Of a stretch of DNA of 64,000 nucleotides, positions 1 through 42,267 are shown piece after piece. Numbering within the stretch: position 1 is the stretch's first letter; every line of letters begins with the position of its first letter. Location: NCBI RefSeq assembly GCF_024700885.2, contig NZ_CP117016.1, one strand, 5' to 3'. The notes under the pieces are model-generated. The model was not told where the DNA came from. It searched no databases and saw only the letters and a program-made list of their open reading frames with translations. The DNA is from Escherichia coli (lineage in GTDB: Bacteria > Pseudomonadota > Gammaproteobacteria > Enterobacterales > Enterobacteriaceae). Both the position numbers and the translations under genes were made by a program.

Positions 1-256
1 GCATAGTGAAAACCAAAGTAAAGGTGTGCATTATGCAAAATCACAGCGTCTCTTAGAAATTAATCATGCGCACTTGCATTTAATGGAATTATTGGATGAA
101 GGGAAGAAACACAATATTTTTAAGGCAGATAGCGACCCATTGCAGGTGAATATTAATATTGCTGCGCTTGGGGGATATTATTTGATCAACCAGCATACGC
201 TTGGCCTGGTTTATCCAGTGCGCCGTAAAACCCCGTCCTTCAGGGCGGGGATATAA
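1..256 (+). CDS. 3' portion of a regulator-like gene entering from the window edge (possibly ytfA-like); last ~10 codons are encoded by the IS left-end hairpin
   Basis: Frame is open from position 2 with no upstream stop; ORF track lists 26..256; stop at 254-256 lies just after the hairpin at 231-250. Family assignment is a guess from the translated fragment. Confidence 0.35.
231..250. repeat. IS200/IS605 left-end subterminal imperfect palindrome (CCCCGTCC-TTCA-GGGCGGGG)
   Basis: 8-bp stem with one T-G mismatch and TTCA loop, read directly from sequence. Confidence 0.6.
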
Positions 257-271
257 GGCGCGGTTTTCCAC

Positions 272-703
272 CTAACCAGGTGTTTGCTGTTGTTCAATGT
301 ATTGACGGATGGCGGATATTGGCGCACCTCCGCAGCTACTGGCAAAATAGCCAGGACTCCACAAAACGCCTTTGTAGTAATACCTGACTGCAATATCTGG
401 TCGATCTCGTCGCAGTAACCTACTCGATACGCCTTTGAGGCTGTTTACCAGACTGGATATCGCCAGTTTGGGAGGATAGTTAATTAACAAATGGACGTGA
501 TCTGGTTCGCCATCCATTTCAACCAGTTCAGCTTCAAAATCAGCACATACCTTTGAAAAGTAAGTGCGTAGTTTTTCTTTCGCGTCATGGTCAAAAATCT
601 GGCGTCGGTATTTGGTGACAAAGACCAGGTGAACATGCATCAGGAAAACACAATGCTTTCCACGCCGGATATCGGTTTCTTTTTTCACAGACCAAAGTAT
701 CAT
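272..703 (-). CDS. tnpA: IS200-like Y1 (HUH) transposase TnpA
   Basis: 143-aa ORF with HVH motif (DHVHLLINYPP), KYRR motif and C-terminal catalytic-type Tyr (IRQYIEQQ); size typical of IS200 TnpA. Confidence 0.85.
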   Translation of the reverse strand: MILWSVKKETDIRRGKHCVFLMHVHLVFVTKYRRQIFDHDAKEKLRTYFSKVCADFEAELVEMDGEPDHVHLLINYPPKLAISSLVNSLKGVSSRLLRRDRPDIAVRYYYKGVLWSPGYFASSCGGAPISAIRQYIEQQQTPG

Positions 704-710
704 TTGACCT

Positions 711-1919
711 GTGAAACGATTACAGGCATTTAAATTCCAGTTAAGACCAGGTGGTCAACAGGAGTGTGAAATGAGGCGCTTCGCAGGCGCATGTCGTTTC
801 GTTTTCAATCGTGCTCTGGCGCTTCAGAATGAGAATCATGAGGCCGGTAATAAATACATCCCTTACGGGAAAATGGCTTCCTGGTTGGTTGAGTGGAAAA
901 ATGCCACTGAAACGCAATGGCTTAAAGATTCTCCCTCACAGCCATTGCAACAGTCACTGAAAGACCTTGAGCGGGCTTACAAAAACTTCTTCCGGAAGCG
1001 GGCTGCTTTTCCCCGATTCAAAAAGCGGGGACAGAATGATGCATTCCGCTACCCGCAGGGCGTTAAGCTCGATCAGGAAAACAGCCGTATTTTTCTGCCG
1101 AAACTTGGCTGGATGCGCTACCGGAACAGCCGTCAGGTCACGGGTGTTGTAAAAAATGTCACTGTCAGCCAGTCCTGCGGTAAGTGGTACATCAGTATTC
1201 AGACAGAAAGTGAAGTATCAACTCCGGATCACCCTTCAGCATCAATGGTCGGGCTGGATGCTGGCGTGGCTAAACTCGCCACGCTGTCAGATGGCACAGT
1301 CTTTGAGCCTGTAAACAGTTTTCAGAAAAACCAGAAGACGCTGGCGAGACTTCAGCGACAGTTAAGCCGCAAGGTCAAATTCAGCAACAACTGGCAGAAG
1401 CAGAAACGCAAAATACAGCGACTGCATTCCTGTATCGCAAATATCCGCAGGGACTACCTTCACAAAGTCACAACGACCGTCAGCAAAAACCACGCAATGA
1501 TAGTCATTGAGGATTTGAAGGTCAGCAACATGTCAAAGTCAGCAGCGGGTACGGTCAGCCAGCCGGGGCGCAATGTCCGGGCAAAATCAGGTTTAAACCG
1601 TTCGATACTGGATCAGGGCTGGTATGAAATGCGCCGCCAGCTTGAGTACAAGCAGCTCTGGCGTGGCGGTCAGGTGCTTGCTGTTCCGCCAGCGTACACA
1701 AGCCAGCGTTGCGCGTGCTGTGGTCATACAGCGAAAGAAAATCGCCTGTCACAAAGTAAATTCAGATGCCAGGCATGTGGATATACAGCGAACGCTGATG
1801 TAAATGGCGCTCGTAACATTTTAGCGGCGGGGCACGCCGTTCTTGCCTGTGGAGAGATGGTGCAGTCAGGCCGCTCGTTGAAGCAGGAACCCACCGAAAT
1901 GATTCAGGCGACAGCCTGA
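711..1919 (+). CDS. tnpB: TnpB (OrfB) RNA-guided endonuclease homolog, IS605/IS1341 type
   Basis: 402-aa ORF with RuvC-I (GLDAGV), RuvC-II (IVIEDLKV), Cys-rich zinc finger (CACCGH...CQACGY) and RuvC-III ([10 protein letters not shown]) motifs, all apparently intact. Confidence 0.9.
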
Positions 1920-1975
1920 ACGTAGCAGGGATCCACGTCCTTCAGGGCGTGGAGGATGTCAACATATCAGTATGG
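1780..1975 (+). ncRNA. Predicted omega-RNA (reRNA) scaffold plus flank-derived guide for TnpB (inferred, not demonstrated)
   Basis: By analogy with characterised TnpB systems, where the guide RNA derives from the tnpB 3' end and right end; the RE hairpin at 1932-1953 lies in this span. Confidence 0.25.
1932..1953. repeat. IS200/IS605 right-end subterminal imperfect palindrome (TCCACGTCC-TTCA-GGGCGTGGA)
   Basis: 9-bp stem with one T-G mismatch at the same relative position as in the left-end hairpin, same TTCA loop. Confidence 0.6.
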
Positions 1976-2053
1976 TTTCCCCCCAGGCACTGGAAGCCAG
2001 ACGTAAGGTCATCAAAGAGACGCTCCTTAGCTGGCTTTTGGTTGATTCTTCAT

Positions 2054-2728
2054 CTACCGCGCACGAATAAAACTGCCATCCGGCTGGCGGGTAAACAGGA
2101 CCTGTTGATTATTCCCCGTATCAATGGTTAAGCCCGTCACCACGCCGCTGGCGTTCTGGCGGATTTTCACCATCTGCCCGTTTTGCAAATTACTCAGCGG
2201 CTTACCCGCGCCTTCTACCTGCGCCATTGCATAGACATCGGTAGCGGGCAGTCCGTGGTCGCGGAACAGCTGCGCCATCGTTTTACCGGGTTCGACACGA
2301 TAGGAGCGCCATTGATTATCAATTCCGCTATCTGGCTGGAATGGTTGCGTTTGGGTGGTTTGCGGCTGCTCTTCTGGCTGGCCTTCCTGTATAGGTTCTG
2401 GAGCGAGCGGAGCCACCTGATCAGGATCATTTTGTGGCGTGACTAATTGCGCCCGCAGCTGTTCTTCTGTCGGTGGTTGTGATTGCGACTGAATATCTAA
2501 CTGTGCTTCACGCGTCACCACCGGCGCGTTGGGCGTATCATCAGATGGAAGCAGAAATCCGACCACCAATACAATGGCGGCAATAATGATCCCCCGACGA
2601 TGCATCTGCGGCAGCGGGTCCATGAAGCGAAAATTGTCCGGCGCGTGCCAGACTTTCTCCAGGGTTGGTTTTAGTTCAAAGCGCCCGGGCATGGTTTCCT
2701 CCTGCTCCGCGTCTTGTTCCTCAATCAT
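2054..2728 (-). CDS. ytfB: YtfB-like OapA-domain membrane protein (cell-division associated)
   Basis: 224-aa ORF with N-terminal TM segment, Pro/Gln-rich linker and C-terminal OapA-like domain; position next to fklB matches the E. coli gene order. Confidence 0.8.
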
Positions 2729-2909
2729 AGCCTATGAATATGCTAACGCTATGATGTCCGTGGTAAACCCGCCTTTATTATATTCATACGGGATATTGCT
2801 ATTGTTTCTTTTTCCCCGGGATTTGTCATCATTCCCGCGACAAAGTTTTACCCAAAGAAGTGTGGCTGATATGCTGCCCGCTACTTTATACCCTAAGAAA
2901 GGAAATACG

Positions 2910-3530
2910 ATGACCACCCCAACTTTTGACACCATCGAAGCGCAAGCAAGCTACGGCATTGGTTTGCAGGTAGGGCAACAACTGAGTGAATCTGGCCTGG
3001 AAGGGCTGCTGCCAGAAGCACTGGTTGCAGGCATTGCCGATGCGCTGGAAGGCAAACATCCGGCTGTTCCGGTTGATGTGGTGCACCGCGCGCTGCGTGA
3101 AATCCACGAACGCGCCGATGCCGTTCGTCGTCAGCGTTTCCAGGCGATGGCTGCTGAAGGTGTGAAATACCTGGAAGAAAACGCCAAAAAAGAAGGTGTA
3201 AATAGCACCGAATCTGGCCTGCAATTCCGCGTGATCAACCAGGGCGAAGGCGCAATTCCGGCACGTACCGACCGCGTTCGTGTTCATTACACCGGAAAAC
3301 TGATCGACGGCACCGTGTTTGACAGCTCCGTCGCTCGCGGCGAGCCCGCTGAATTCCCGGTTAACGGCGTGATCCCTGGCTGGATTGAAGCACTGACTCT
3401 GATGCCGGTAGGTTCTAAATGGGAACTGACTATCCCGCAGGAACTGGCATATGGCGAGCGTGGCGCAGGCGCGTCCATCCCTCCGTTCAGCACCCTGGTG
3501 TTTGAAGTCGAACTGCTGGAAATCCTCTAA
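2910..3530 (+). CDS. fklB: FKBP-type peptidyl-prolyl cis-trans isomerase FklB
   Basis: Start chosen at internal ATG ([20 protein letters not shown]...) 127 codons into the 2529..3530 ORF, giving the expected 206 aa; purine-rich RBS upstream. Confidence 0.9.
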
Positions 3531-3838: not shown

Positions 3839-5251
3839 ATGGTAGATCAGGTAAAAGTCGTTGCCGATGATCAGGCTCCGGCTGAACAGTCGCTACGGCG
3901 CAATCTCACAAACCGACATATTCAGCTTATTGCCATTGGCGGTGCCATTGGTACGGGGTTGTTTATGGGGTCCGGCAAAACGATTAGCCTTGCCGGGCCG
4001 TCGATCATTTTCGTTTATATGATCATCGGTTTTATGCTCTTTTTCGTGATGCGGGCAATGGGGGAATTGCTGCTTTCGAATCTGGAATACAAATCTTTTA
4101 GTGACTTCGCTTCCGATTTACTCGGGCCGTGGGCAGGATATTTCACCGGCTGGACTTACTGGTTCTGCTGGGTTGTAACCGGTATGGCAGACGTGGTGGC
4201 GATCACGGCTTATGCTCAGTTCTGGTTCCCCGAGCTCTCCGACTGGGTCGCCTCGCTGGCGGTGATAGTGCTGCTGCTGACGCTCAACCTCGCCACCGTG
4301 AAAATGTTCGGTGAGATGGAGTTCTGGTTTGCGATGATCAAAATCGTCGCCATTGTGTCGCTGATTGTCGTCGGCCTGGTCATGGTGGCGATGCACTTTC
4401 AGTCACCGACCGGTGTGGAAGCGTCATTCGCGCATTTGTGGAATGATGGCGGCTGGTTCCCGAAAGGTTTAAGTGGCTTCTTTGCCGGATTCCAGATAGC
4501 GGTTTTCGCTTTCGTAGGGATTGAGCTGGTAGGTACAACAGCTGCGGAAACCAAAGATCCAGAGAAATCACTGCCACGCGCGATTAACTCCATTCCGATC
4601 CGTATCATTATGTTCTACGTCTTCGCGCTGATTGTGATTATGTCCGTGACGCCGTGGAGTTCGGTAGTCCCGGAGAAAAGCCCGTTCGTTGAACTGTTCG
4701 TGTTGGTAGGTTTGCCTGCGGCTGCCAGCGTGATCAACTTTGTGGTGCTGACCTCTGCGGCGTCTTCCGCTAACAGCGGTGTCTTCTCTACCAGCCGTAT
4801 GCTGTTTGGTCTGGCGCAGGAAGGTGTGGCACCGAAAGCGTTCGCTAAACTCTCTAAGCGCGCAGTACCCGCGAAAGGGCTGACCTTCTCTTGTATCTGT
4901 CTGCTCGGCGGCGTGGTGATGTTGTATGTGAATCCCAGCGTGATTGGCGCGTTCACGATGATTACAACCGTTTCCGCGATTCTGTTTATGTTCGTCTGGA
5001 CGATTATCCTTTGCTCGTACCTGGTGTATCGCAAACAGCGTCCGCACCTGCATGAGAAATCAATCTACAAGATGCCGCTCGGCAAGCTGATGTGCTGGGT
5101 ATGTATGGCATTCTTTGTGTTCGTGGTCGTGCTGCTGACACTGGAAGATGATACCCGCCAGGCGCTGCTGGTTACCCCGCTGTGGTTTATCGCTCTGGGG
5201 CTGGGCTGGTTGTTTATTGGTAAGAAGCGGGCTGCTGAACTGCGGAAATAA
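3839..5251 (+). CDS. cycA: D-serine/D-alanine/glycine APC-family transporter CycA
   Basis: 470-aa polytopic membrane ORF recognised as CycA. Confidence 0.95.
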   Translation: MVDQVKVVADDQAPAEQSLRRNLTNRHIQLIAIGGAIGTGLFMGSGKTISLAGPSIIFVYMIIGFMLFFVMRAMGELLLSNLEYKSFSDFASDLLGPWAGYFTGWTYWFCWVVTGMADVVAITAYAQFWFPELSDWVASLAVIVLLLTLNLATVKMFGEMEFWFAMIKIVAIVSLIVVGLVMVAMHFQSPTGVEASFAHLWNDGGWFPKGLSGFFAGFQIAVFAFVGIELVGTTAAETKDPEKSLPRAINSIPIRIIMFYVFALIVIMSVTPWSSVVPEKSPFVELFVLVGLPAAASVINFVVLTSAASSANSGVFSTSRMLFGLAQEGVAPKAFAKLSKRAVPAKGLTFSCICLLGGVVMLYVNPSVIGAFTMITTVSAILFMFVWTIILCSYLVYRKQRPHLHEKSIYKMPLGKLMCWVCMAFFVFVVVLLTLEDDTRQALLVTPLWFIALGLGWLFIGKKRAAELRK

Positions 5252-10541: not shown

Positions 10542-10730
10542 CAGGGACATCCTTTTATCATCGGGAATACGAAAGAAAAGGGAGAATAAACGTCTTACTT
10601 ATAGAACAGTGAAGAATGCCACAATTTTACGCTTTGAAAATGATGACACTATCACAGTTGGCGCATTCATTAACGATAGGGTATAAGTAAAACAATAAGT
10701 TAACACCGCTCACAGAGACGAGGTGGAGAA

Positions 10731-15174: not shown

Positions 15175-15349
15175 ATCTTATCCGACCTTTCAGGCCAGAT
15201 CCTCGGAAGGGGAAGTTGATTAATTTGTGTGAAATACACATTGAAAGCCGATTCGAAGAAAGTGAACCGGCATTTTCAGTGGCTAGTATAGCGTAAGGTA
15301 CTGTAAAGCCGCCAGAGGGTTAAAATTCAGACTGCTGATAAATGAAAAA

Positions 15350-24907: not shown

Positions 24908-24988
24908 CCGCCGGATAAGGCATTCACGCCGCATCCGGCGGTTGTGCGAGATGCCTGATGCGACGCTGTTGTGTCTTATCTGGCGCAC
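24908..24988. repeat. REP/BIME palindromic repeat cluster
   Basis: GCCGGATAAGGC...GCCGCATCCGGC and GCCTGATGCGACGC units between ytfQ and ytfR. Confidence 0.5.
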
Positions 24989-31133: not shown

Positions 31134-31245
31134 ATGCCGGATAAAGCGTTTACGCCGCATCCGGCATTTGAGCATAGTGCCTGATGCGACGCTTGATGCG
31201 TCTTATCAGGCCTACAGGTGCACCGTATCCGGCAAACCATACTCA
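31134..31245. repeat. REP/BIME palindromic repeat cluster
   Basis: Several GCCGGATAAAGCGTTTACGCCGCATCCGGCA and GCCTGATGCGACGC units between mpl and yjgA. Confidence 0.5.
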
Positions 31246-41999: not shown

Positions 42000-42267
42000 T
42001 CGCCATAGATGCTACGAATATTATTGGATTCTCCTTATTATTTGCGGCGCTTTTTTCACTTACCGGAGGTTATATGGAACCTGATCCCACGCCTCTCCCT
42101 CGACGGAGATTAAAACTTTTCCGGTAAGCCCGTCTTTTCACGGCGTTACCGGATGCGTAAGGCCGTGACGTTTTAACGTCCCTGCTCAGCTTTATTACCT
42201 TCAGGTAAGGCTTCGCCACGCCTGAAGACATTTCTGTACTGTTTCAGACAGTGCGGAGGGACTCCTT
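42000..42267 (+). promoter_or_regulatory. mgtA 5' leader (Mg2+/proline-responsive attenuator region), extent approximate
   Basis: Long untranslated leader containing the Pro-rich leader ORF mgtL immediately upstream of mgtA. Confidence 0.55.
42074..42127 (+). CDS. mgtL: mgtA leader peptide MgtL ([17 protein letters not shown])
   Basis: 17-codon Pro-rich ORF with GGAGG RBS, inside the mgtA leader. Confidence 0.8.

Follow-up and report, generated by a model that had tools for sequence, protein, structure and literature searches.

A structurally intact IS609 element, probably a long-standing resident of the ytfA gene of Escherichia coli

Near one end of the 64-kb stretch of Escherichia coli DNA analysed here (hereafter, the window) lies a transposon of the IS200/IS605 type, which raises the questions of what this element is, which gene it occupies and whether it arrived there recently. 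Its sequence identifies the element as IS609, an already catalogued E. coli insertion sequence of the IS200/IS605 family, and shows this copy to be structurally intact. Its nucleotide sequence is 98.1–98.7% identical to copies at ygjK, between ydcL and ydcO in K-12, and at other loci, and RefSeq names the comparison copies IS609, including the K-12 copy and one 'IS609 family transposase'. The copy of K-12 MG1655 (ydcL-ydcO, insP'/insQ), which occupies another chromosomal site, has the same length (1748 bp), the same ends (CC[A/G]GTGCGCC...GGAGGATGTCAA), the same TTAT and TCAA sites and divergent tnpA and tnpB genes; it is 98.1% identical to the window element in nucleotide sequence, and its 402-aa TnpB differs by 8 substitutions. 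IS609 and the biology of TnpB are established, and both proteins are correctly named in NCBI. Overall, we favour, with a probability of about 0.88, an old, polymorphic IS609 insertion in ytfA to which the TnpA and TnpB–omega-RNA mechanism of the family would apply. Beyond correct annotation this carries little weight; what is gained are the boundaries, the TTAT and TCAA sites, and a predicted guide with its target. The features of the locus are collected in Table 1.

Table 1. Features of the IS609 copy and of its surroundings, in window coordinates.
Feature	Position	Strand	Remarks
ytfA upstream fragment, TetR/AcrR family, left flank	1..214	+	collinear with K-12 ytfA
TTAT, insertion target and left cleavage site	211..214	+	predicted TnpB transposon-adjacent motif (TAM)
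IS609 element, 1748 bp	215..1962	+	from empty versus occupied sites; target-site duplication absent
Left-end subterminal imperfect palindrome	220..261	+	core hairpin 231-250, loop TTCA
tnpA, Y1 HUH transposase, 143 aa, intact	272..703	-	ATG start, H69-V-H71, Y135, TAG stop
Imperfect palindrome over both divergent start codons	683..716	.	inverted repeat, 14-nt arms, 86% complementary
tnpB (insQ), TnpB-family RNA-guided endonuclease, 402 aa, intact	711..1919	+	RuvC D183/E267/D363; zinc C334, C337, C353, C356
Predicted omega-RNA scaffold	1824..1962	+	six conserved helices; overlaps tnpB 3' end and right end
Right-end subterminal hairpin, 9 bp	1932..1953	+	loop TTCA
TCAA, right cleavage site	1959..1962	+	final four element bases
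Predicted omega-RNA guide, CATATCAGTATGGTTT	1963..1978	+	equals the right flank; from the TnpB mechanism (Meers et al.)
ytfA C-terminal fragment, 36 codons including stop	1963..2070	+	overlaps ytfB 3' end; RefSeq annotation of strain 1190
ytfB (cell division protein), intact	2054..2692	-	stop codon 92 bp from the right end of the IS

The boundaries follow from the comparison of empty and occupied sites. The element, whose termini read CCAGTGCG...GGATGTCAA, had originally been placed at 212-1975; the ytfA sites without insertion (L003 and L005), the empty ygjK site of K-12 and five other copies fix it at 215-1962. With the insertion point marked by a slash, the two empty ytfA sites read GGTTTAT/CATATCAG, and the empty ygjK site reads GGGATTTAT/GCACCTG, so that at both loci the insertion is seamless, directly 3' of TTAT and without duplication of the target. 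Limits of 216-1963, obtained from the K-12 empty site alone, were rejected because K-12 has an SNP at the junction; the empty sites of NCTC9699, U14A and K-12 ygjK, together with the variable base that follows TCAA in other copies, lead to 215-1962. TTAT directly precedes the left end at six of six independent insertion sites, and ...GGAGGATGTCAA is common to all copies and relatives, which diverge immediately past it. The published cleavage sites of IS609, TTAT on the left and TCAA on the right (PMC6906374), are the same in the window element.

Both subterminal hairpins that had been predicted are present and, with TnpA and TnpB, make up a complete IS200/IS605-family element. The left-end palindrome, folded as single-stranded DNA, reaches -16.8 kcal/mol (z = -4.4); its core reads CCCCGTCC-TTCA-GGGCGGGG, and its counterpart at 1933-1952 reads CCACGTCC-TTCA-GGGCGTGG. 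The two hairpins are 90% identical direct-repeat copies in the same orientation and the only matches within the 64 kb, where 0.04 would be expected by chance. In relatives, the right-end hairpin shows a compensatory change from A-T to C-G (pair 119/134). A search of the 64-kb window for a second IS609 copy or a solo end returned none.

The organization of the ends resembles that of IS608 from Helicobacter pylori, which likewise has subterminal imperfect palindromes, a right end in TCAA and no target-site duplication; in both, the target tetranucleotide is found 16–19 nt 5' of the left hairpin. By analogy with IS608, in which AAAG corresponds to TTAC, the AAAA at 227-230 presumably serves TTAT as left DNA guide. 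By contrast with the window element, IS608 targets TTAC rather than TTAT and carries tnpA and tnpB in the same direction rather than divergently, and its proteins are only distantly related to those of the window (TnpA, E 5e-20).

The insertion lies inside ytfA, about 108 bp before the stop codon and in the 3' third of the gene, rather than between ytfA and ytfB and beside the latter, as first described; ytfB is untouched. In K-12 there is no gap between the two genes because they overlap convergently. In strain 1190, which is 100% identical, as are ST70 and O166:H15 isolates, both flanks of the IS are annotated as 'TetR/AcrR family transcriptional regulator, incomplete', and the left flank of the window is 95.9% identical to K-12 (gapped BLAST). 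The supposition that K-12 MG1655 lacks the element at this position proved right, since the comparison revealed an empty site there. The annotation should thus record a disrupted ytfA and an insertion that is common, being found in 32% of complete genomes, and ordinary.

Both genes of the element are intact, as predicted. The tnpA product matches the NCBIfam model transpos_IS200 (E 4.7e-44) and retains the HUH motif and the catalytic tyrosine of Y1 transposases, its residues H69, H71 and Y135 aligning opposite H64, H66 and Y127 of the IS608 TnpA. The exact TnpA protein is already present in NCBI on at least 1000 public contigs, and the exact TnpB protein on 785. The start codons of the two genes are divergent and 7 bp apart.

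TnpB matches the NCBIfam model guided_TnpB with E 7e-116 (387.7 bits; cutoff 100) and contains the Pfam domains HTH_OrfB_IS605 (PF12323, residues 1-48), OrfB_IS605 (PF01385, 162-277) and Cas12f1-like TNB (PF07282, 304-370). In the published numbering, the catalytic residues of the TnpB of ISDra2 are D191, E278 and D361. The alignment to this protein (8BF8/8EXA) places them opposite D183, E267 and D363 of the window TnpB, and the zinc cysteines of ISDra2 TnpB opposite C334, C337, C353 and C356; the gene has no frameshift. Residues 3-376 align with the Deinococcus radiodurans protein (PDB 8BF8/8EXA/8H1J; E 5e-54), and both the D/E/D triad of RuvC and the CxxC...CxxC zinc-finger pattern are kept. 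Given the intact RuvC triad, exaptation to a TldR-type regulator without nuclease activity was rejected. Intact motifs are nevertheless no guarantee of activity, because the TnpB of H. pylori IS608 was inactive in one assay. Nine TnpBs were purified in PMC12781874, one of them from IS609.

The completeness of the element, whose ORFs, ends and catalytic residues are all intact, the empty site in K-12 and the occurrence of IS609 at six or more chromosomal sites and on plasmids across E. coli would all fit an insertion that is recent, confined to one strain and still active, a reading close to the initial interpretation of the locus. The distribution of the junctions argues strongly against this reading: the left and right junctions are found in 1744 and 1743, respectively, of 5426 complete E. 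coli genomes (32%), whereas 3247 genomes have the empty site, so that the insertion is not specific to one strain. Copies at the ytfA site differ by 30–35 of 1748 nt, those compared with the window copy by 32–35 (about 2%), and their flanks by 5–6 of 273 nt; this similar divergence of element and flanks indicates that the insertion is probably old and vertically inherited. Moreover, the ytfA copies have decayed independently in other lineages, by loss of the start codon, a tnpB frameshift or truncation by IS1203. The suggestion that the element might still be active has nothing beyond the intact ORFs in its favour: the exact window variant occurs in 30 genomes, in all 30 at ytfA and as a single copy, and therefore gives no sign of recent movement. 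We thus regard a recent and active insertion as very improbable, although the presence of IS609 at least at six chromosomal sites and on plasmids implies past movement of the family within E. coli.

In contrast to the window copy, most of the IS609 copies sampled contain a tnpA that is dead or altered, owing to TGA at codon 96, a change of the ATG start to ATA, or a lost stop codon, and such copies keep a full-length, 402-aa tnpB. The K-12 copy is a case in point: it differs from the window copy, with its complete 143-aa TnpA, in having TGA at tnpA codon 96 and CAG in place of the TAG stop, and is non-autonomous because of these two changes. In K-12 mutation-accumulation lines, IS609, the copy with TGA at codon 96, never transposed. 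Across six IS609 copies, tnpB has a pN/pS of 0.17–0.33, compared with about 0.6–2.4 for tnpA, the latter from a small sample with 0–2 synonymous differences. With a ratio of about 0.2, tnpB is under purifying selection, and the 43 nt of the right end are nearly invariant among the same six copies.

These observations would also be compatible with a relic that no longer moves, its tnpB and omega-RNA alone being maintained, through selfish retention or a benefit to the host, whereas tnpA is effectively neutral and intact in the window by an accident of lineage. The contrast in pN/pS, the nearly invariant right end, the prevalence of copies that combine a damaged tnpA with a full-length tnpB and the immobility of the K-12 copy all point in this direction. 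However, autonomous copies persist, with tnpA intact both in the window and at yoaG-yeaQ, the tnpA counts are tiny, and tnpB has decayed too in some copies (L008, annotated in RefSeq as a pseudogene, and L014). We consider such a relic possible but doubtful.

The 3' end of tnpB and the right end of the element share a conserved RNA structure. The consensus comprises 38 pairs, with pairing in 92% of cells, and compensatory changes affect 8 pairs, compared with 0–4 in slid controls, in an alignment of 7 sequences of 79–100% identity from which the structure itself was also taken. Homology among relatives ends exactly at TCAA. Within the element, Rfam returned no match at the gathering threshold; below this threshold, the + strand matched HgcC (1852-1975), RAGATH-18 (1846-1889) and sot0042 (1792-1953), and HgcC, sot and RAGATH-18 have been linked in the literature to the 3' ends of tnpB genes and to guide RNAs. 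The conserved, covarying structure thus weakly resembles Rfam families connected with TnpB guides. A scan of positions 1-2200 for sigma-70 promoters and terminators scored no better than shuffled sequences and gave no usable signal for either gene or for the omega-RNA; no sigma-70-like promoter emerged for tnpB or the omega-RNA.

The mechanism outlined here is the established one of the family, carried over to the window copy, whose expression, omega-RNA processing, cleavage and present-day mobility we infer. TnpA would release the top (+) strand in the form of a single-stranded circle, cutting after TTAT (214/215) and after TCAA (1962/1963) with the help of the two subterminal hairpins, and the circle would reinsert 3' of another TTAT without duplicating the target. 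TnpB would bind an omega-RNA that comes from the 3' end of tnpB together with the right end (about 1824-1962), with the adjoining flank CATATCAGTATGGTTT as the guide. This layout, with the scaffold predicted from the tnpB 3' end plus right end and the flank serving as guide, resembles that of ISDra2, which differs in its TAM (TTGAT, as opposed to the predicted TTAT) and in an omega-RNA of unrelated nucleotide sequence. TTAT followed by CATATCAGTATGGTTT would then constitute both the donor joint and the empty-site target. The seamless donor joint that remains after excision (TTAT, then flank) would be the substrate of TnpB, whose cut would force recombinational repair from a sister copy, whereby the element would be retained. 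The empty sites L003 and L005 read TTAT followed by CATATCAGTATGG, the K-12 allele has CAC at guide position 3, and within the window there is no intact target of the guide.

The flanks of the ytfA site display a four-gamete pattern, with the haplotypes CAT...CCCCCC and CAC...CACCCC each found both occupied and empty, and the ytfA copies differ as much from one another as from copies at other loci. Instead of a single ancient insertion, these patterns could reflect repeated independent insertions at one favoured position or, following horizontal transfer of DNA, homing into alleles that lacked the element. However, a single old insertion with subsequent seamless excision, of which this family is capable, or ordinary homologous recombination in the flanks, would give the same pattern, and we consider recurrence or homing unlikely.

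Combining homing with the state of tnpA leads to a more elaborate and, in our view, quite unlikely scenario. The window-type ytfA copy and the copy at yoaG-yeaQ, the other one found with an intact tnpA, would be among the few autonomous 'masters' of IS609 in E. coli, supplying TnpA in trans to the widespread copies at several loci whose tnpA is dead and has TGA at codon 96. Homing by TnpB and the omega-RNA would then counteract seamless excision and keep the ytfA insertion in a third of the species, yielding the four-gamete pattern together with the SNP at guide position 3. If true, this would make IS609 a native E. coli system for TnpB-driven transposon retention.

As a separate observation, the IS609 copy of this lineage has an undamaged tnpA, a state found in a minority of copies. 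Strains of the lineage are accordingly a suitable natural setting in E. coli for work on excision by TnpA and on retention through TnpB.

Judging from sequence comparison, the element is IS609, an already known insertion sequence with a known annotation, so that its significance as a discovery is low. Full-length comparison with copies at other loci gives 98.1-98.7% identity. Among these is the single K-12 copy, located between ydcL and ydcO, which goes by the name IS609 in the literature, and RefSeq labels the tnpA of one ytfA-site copy 'IS200/IS605-like element IS609 family transposase'. At least 1000 public contigs carry the identical 143-aa TnpA as 'IS200/IS605 family transposase', and 785 carry the identical 402-aa TnpB as 'RNA-guided endonuclease InsQ/TnpB family protein'.

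The original prediction of a complete element at 212-1975 holds, but with slightly shifted coordinates. In K-12 MG1655, the site is uninterrupted, as predicted: window positions 1-215 and 1963-3000 are collinear with adjoining K-12 sequence. The junction itself has a SNP in K-12, so the boundary was set from other empty ytfA sites, those of NCTC9699 and U14A, which read GGTTTAT/CATATCAGTATGG. A second locus agrees: the empty ygjK site of K-12 is GGGATTTAT/GCACCTG, and the same site, where IS609 occupies it in another strain, reads GGGATTTAT-CCGGTG...GTCAA-GCACCTG. All copies share the right end ...GGAGGATGTCAA and diverge directly after it. Together, these comparisons define an element of 1748 bp (215-1962) inserted without target duplication. 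At 6/6 independent loci (ytfA, ygjK, ydcL-ydcO, near yedK, yhgE-hslO and yoaG-yeaQ), the left end is immediately preceded by TTAT. In IS608, the TTAC target is read by AAAG located 5' of the left hairpin; by analogy, AAAA at 227-230 would fit the TTAT target. The two predicted subterminal hairpins are real, being direct copies of each other and the sole two matches in 64 kb (chance expectation 0.04).

Features of IS609, its flank and other RNA matches in the window
Feature	Position	Strand	Details
Left hairpin	231-250		CCCCGTCC-TTCA-GGGCGGGG; ssDNA fold z = -4.4
Right hairpin	1933-1952		CCACGTCC-TTCA-GGGCGTGG; ssDNA fold z = -2.5
tnpA ORF	272-703	minus	143 aa, ORF listing
tnpB ORF	711-1919	plus	402 aa, ORF listing
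TnpB, Pfam HTH_OrfB_IS605	residues 1-48
TnpB, Pfam OrfB_IS605	residues 162-277
TnpB, Pfam Cas12f1-like TNB zinc ribbon	residues 304-370
Imperfect palindrome	683-716		TTTCACAGACCAAA / TTTGACCTGTGAAA
Rfam HgcC	1852-1975	tnpB sense	24.6 bits, E 0.007, sub-threshold
Rfam RAGATH-18	1846-1889	tnpB sense	29.5 bits, sub-threshold
Rfam sot0042	1792-1953	tnpB sense	17.6 bits, sub-threshold
Predicted guide	1963-1978		CATATCAGTATGGTTT
ytfB	2054-2692	minus	intact; stop 92 bp from IS right end
Mg riboswitch	42059-42174		at gathering threshold
naRNA4	24909-24985		at gathering threshold
naRNA4	31135-31212		at gathering threshold
ES239	10542-10664		at gathering threshold
STnc450	15236-15293	minus	at gathering threshold
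Ysr276	61210-61404		at gathering threshold

Rather than lying between ytfA and ytfB, as first proposed, IS609 splits ytfA about 108 bp upstream of the stop codon, as indicated by ytfA fragments on both flanks. The window and strain 1190 are 100% identical over 1901 bp; in that strain, RefSeq annotates TetR fragments to the left and right of the IS, the upstream one also lacking the N-terminus. UTI89, NCTC9699 and others carry ytfA intact, as a 648-bp TetR/AcrR-family gene in convergent overlap with the 3' end of ytfB; in K-12, it is an N-terminally truncated pseudogene. The distribution of these alleles, with ytfA intact (215-aa TetR/AcrR regulator) in UTI89, NCTC9699, U14A and isolate 538 and truncated in both K-12 and the window lineage, shows more than one route of ytfA loss in E. 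coli.

The two-gene description was correct. TnpA matches the NCBIfam model 'IS200/IS605 family transposase' (E = 4.7e-44, 149.6 bits, cutoff 55) and TnpB matches 'RNA-guided endonuclease TnpB family protein' (E = 7e-116, 387.7 bits, cutoff 100), with the three Pfam domains forming the canonical TnpB set. The HMMER alignment with ISDra2 TnpB (PDB 8BF8/8EX9/8EXA; E = 5e-54) spans residues 3-376 and, together with the HTH match from residue 1, supports the GTG start at 711. As counted on the alignment, D183, E267 and D363 fall opposite ISDra2 D191, E278 and D361, the catalytic triad according to published ISDra2 work, and zinc cysteines C334, C337, C353 and C356 match as well. In TnpA, H69-V-H71 lies opposite H64/H66 and Y135 opposite Y127 of IS608 TnpA (2A6M/2VHG). 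Neither gene of the window copy contains frameshifts or internal stops. The start codons are divergent and only 7 bp apart (tnpA ATG, 703-701), so that the tnpA promoter must be within tnpB and vice versa. Both starts are covered by the imperfect palindrome, which could be an operator or a hairpin sequestering the start codon in either mRNA.

Among six full-length IS609 copies, pN/pS is 0.17-0.33 for tnpB and about 0.6-2.4, based on very few substitutions, for tnpA; the right end hardly varies. Most sampled copies combine a damaged tnpA with a full-length tnpB; the sample, though small, agrees with the known pattern in which tnpB tends to survive longer than tnpA. Fully intact tnpA is found in the window and yoaG-yeaQ copies. 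Comparison of the window with L010 (ydcL-ydcO), L007 (ygjK), L014-L016 (ytfA sites) and L024 showed that the tnpA stop (272-274) is polymorphic, being TAG in the window and yoaG-yeaQ copies but replaced by CAG in K-12, at ygjK and in the other copies at ytfA. The CAG variant lets the ORF extend across the hairpin of the left end and on beyond the element, yielding the site-dependent 167-186-aa 'TnpA' proteins of public databases. A TGA at tnpA codon 96 is common to two chromosomal loci, ygjK (L007) and ydcL-ydcO (L009/L010), reflecting either a non-autonomous variant mobilised in trans or gene conversion between copies.

Junction-centred 240-bp queries, for which 80% coverage forces a match across the junction, detected the left junction in 1744 and the right in 1743 of 5426 complete E. 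coli genomes, and the K-12-type empty site in 3247/5426. The insertion is thus a common polymorphism (about 32% of genomes) rather than strain-specific. Relative to the window, other ytfA-site copies have 32-35 differences in 1748 nt (about 1.9%) and the right flank has 5-6 in 273 nt (about 2%), similar divergence that fits an old insertion diverging along with the chromosome. Independent decay at ytfA in other lineages includes loss of the tnpA stop (L014-L016), a tnpA start changed from ATG to ATA (L016), a frameshifted tnpB (L014) and truncation by IS1203 (L017). Thirty genomes have a left end identical to that of the window (86 nt, 100% identity), always in ytfA and always as the sole left-end copy of the genome, giving no sign of recent movement of that variant. 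IS609 never transposed in K-12 mutation-accumulation lines (PMC5009759), which fits the codon-96 TGA of the K-12 copy. The original interpretation is partly supported: an intact element absent from K-12 at this site stands, whereas the intergenic location and strain specificity do not, the insertion being within ytfA and common; it is also old, with nothing pointing to present activity. Comparison of window 1963-1985 with the equivalent flank in L001, L003-L006 and L014-L017 revealed haplotypes CAT...CCCCCC and CAC...CACCCC, each both occupied and empty; this four-gamete pattern points to seamless excision, recurrent insertion or flank recombination.

Rfam searches of the element yielded only sub-threshold matches, all three located at the tnpB 3' end and the element's right end; HgcC, RAGATH-18 and sot families have been tied to tnpB 3' ends and TnpB guide RNAs (PMC4615843, PMC11061315; Meers et al.). 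Diverged relatives sharing 79-94% identity were gathered from Salmonella, Klebsiella, Pantoea and E. coli plasmids, and their homology ends precisely at TCAA. The consensus fold comprises six helices (1824-1953), four within the tnpB coding sequence, with a standard pair in 92% of cells. Eight pairs show compensatory changes, versus 0-4 with partners slid by 1-3 columns, and the covariation score is 0.206, versus 0.04-0.07 in slid controls. As the alignment had only seven sequences and itself supplied the fold, these figures support a covarying RNA structure, the putative omega-RNA, without proving it. The predicted guide is the flank, and the predicted TnpB target, TTAT followed by CATATCAGTATGGTTT, corresponds to the donor joint or empty allele seen at two empty ytfA sites (L003, L005); no intact copy of this target occurs within the window. 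By inference from the family, TnpA would remove the top strand between TTAT and TCAA without leaving a scar and reinsert it 3' of another TTAT, and TnpB with omega-RNA would cut the resulting donor joint, whereupon recombination would restore the element. The first flank SNP is at predicted guide position 3. In its TAM-proximal region, the guide of the window element would be mismatched with K-12-type empty alleles.

The IncY P1-like plasmid pAPEC201602 (NZ_CP127299.1; L022, 1901-2039) carries an isolated 139-bp fragment with 79% identity to the putative omega-RNA and right-end region of IS609, between repA and a ParA-like ATPase gene; it ends in GGAGGATGCCAA, keeps most predicted helices and has no tnpB nearby. 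In the copy next to yedK (L008, about 3840-3860; NZ_CP035832.1), whose tnpA and tnpB are both annotated pseudogenes, about 100 bp are missing between two GGAG motifs; this loss takes out most of the predicted scaffold and keeps the terminal GATGTCAA. A relative that shares about 81.5% identity with IS609 over the tnpB 3' end and the right end is very widespread on Klebsiella plasmids (L021), with 1191 matching Klebsiella records in the plasmid collection; at many of these matches, the gene table has only a 'hypothetical protein' or no gene. The RNAs that Rfam matched at gathering threshold in other parts of the window are ordinary enterobacterial features unrelated to IS609.
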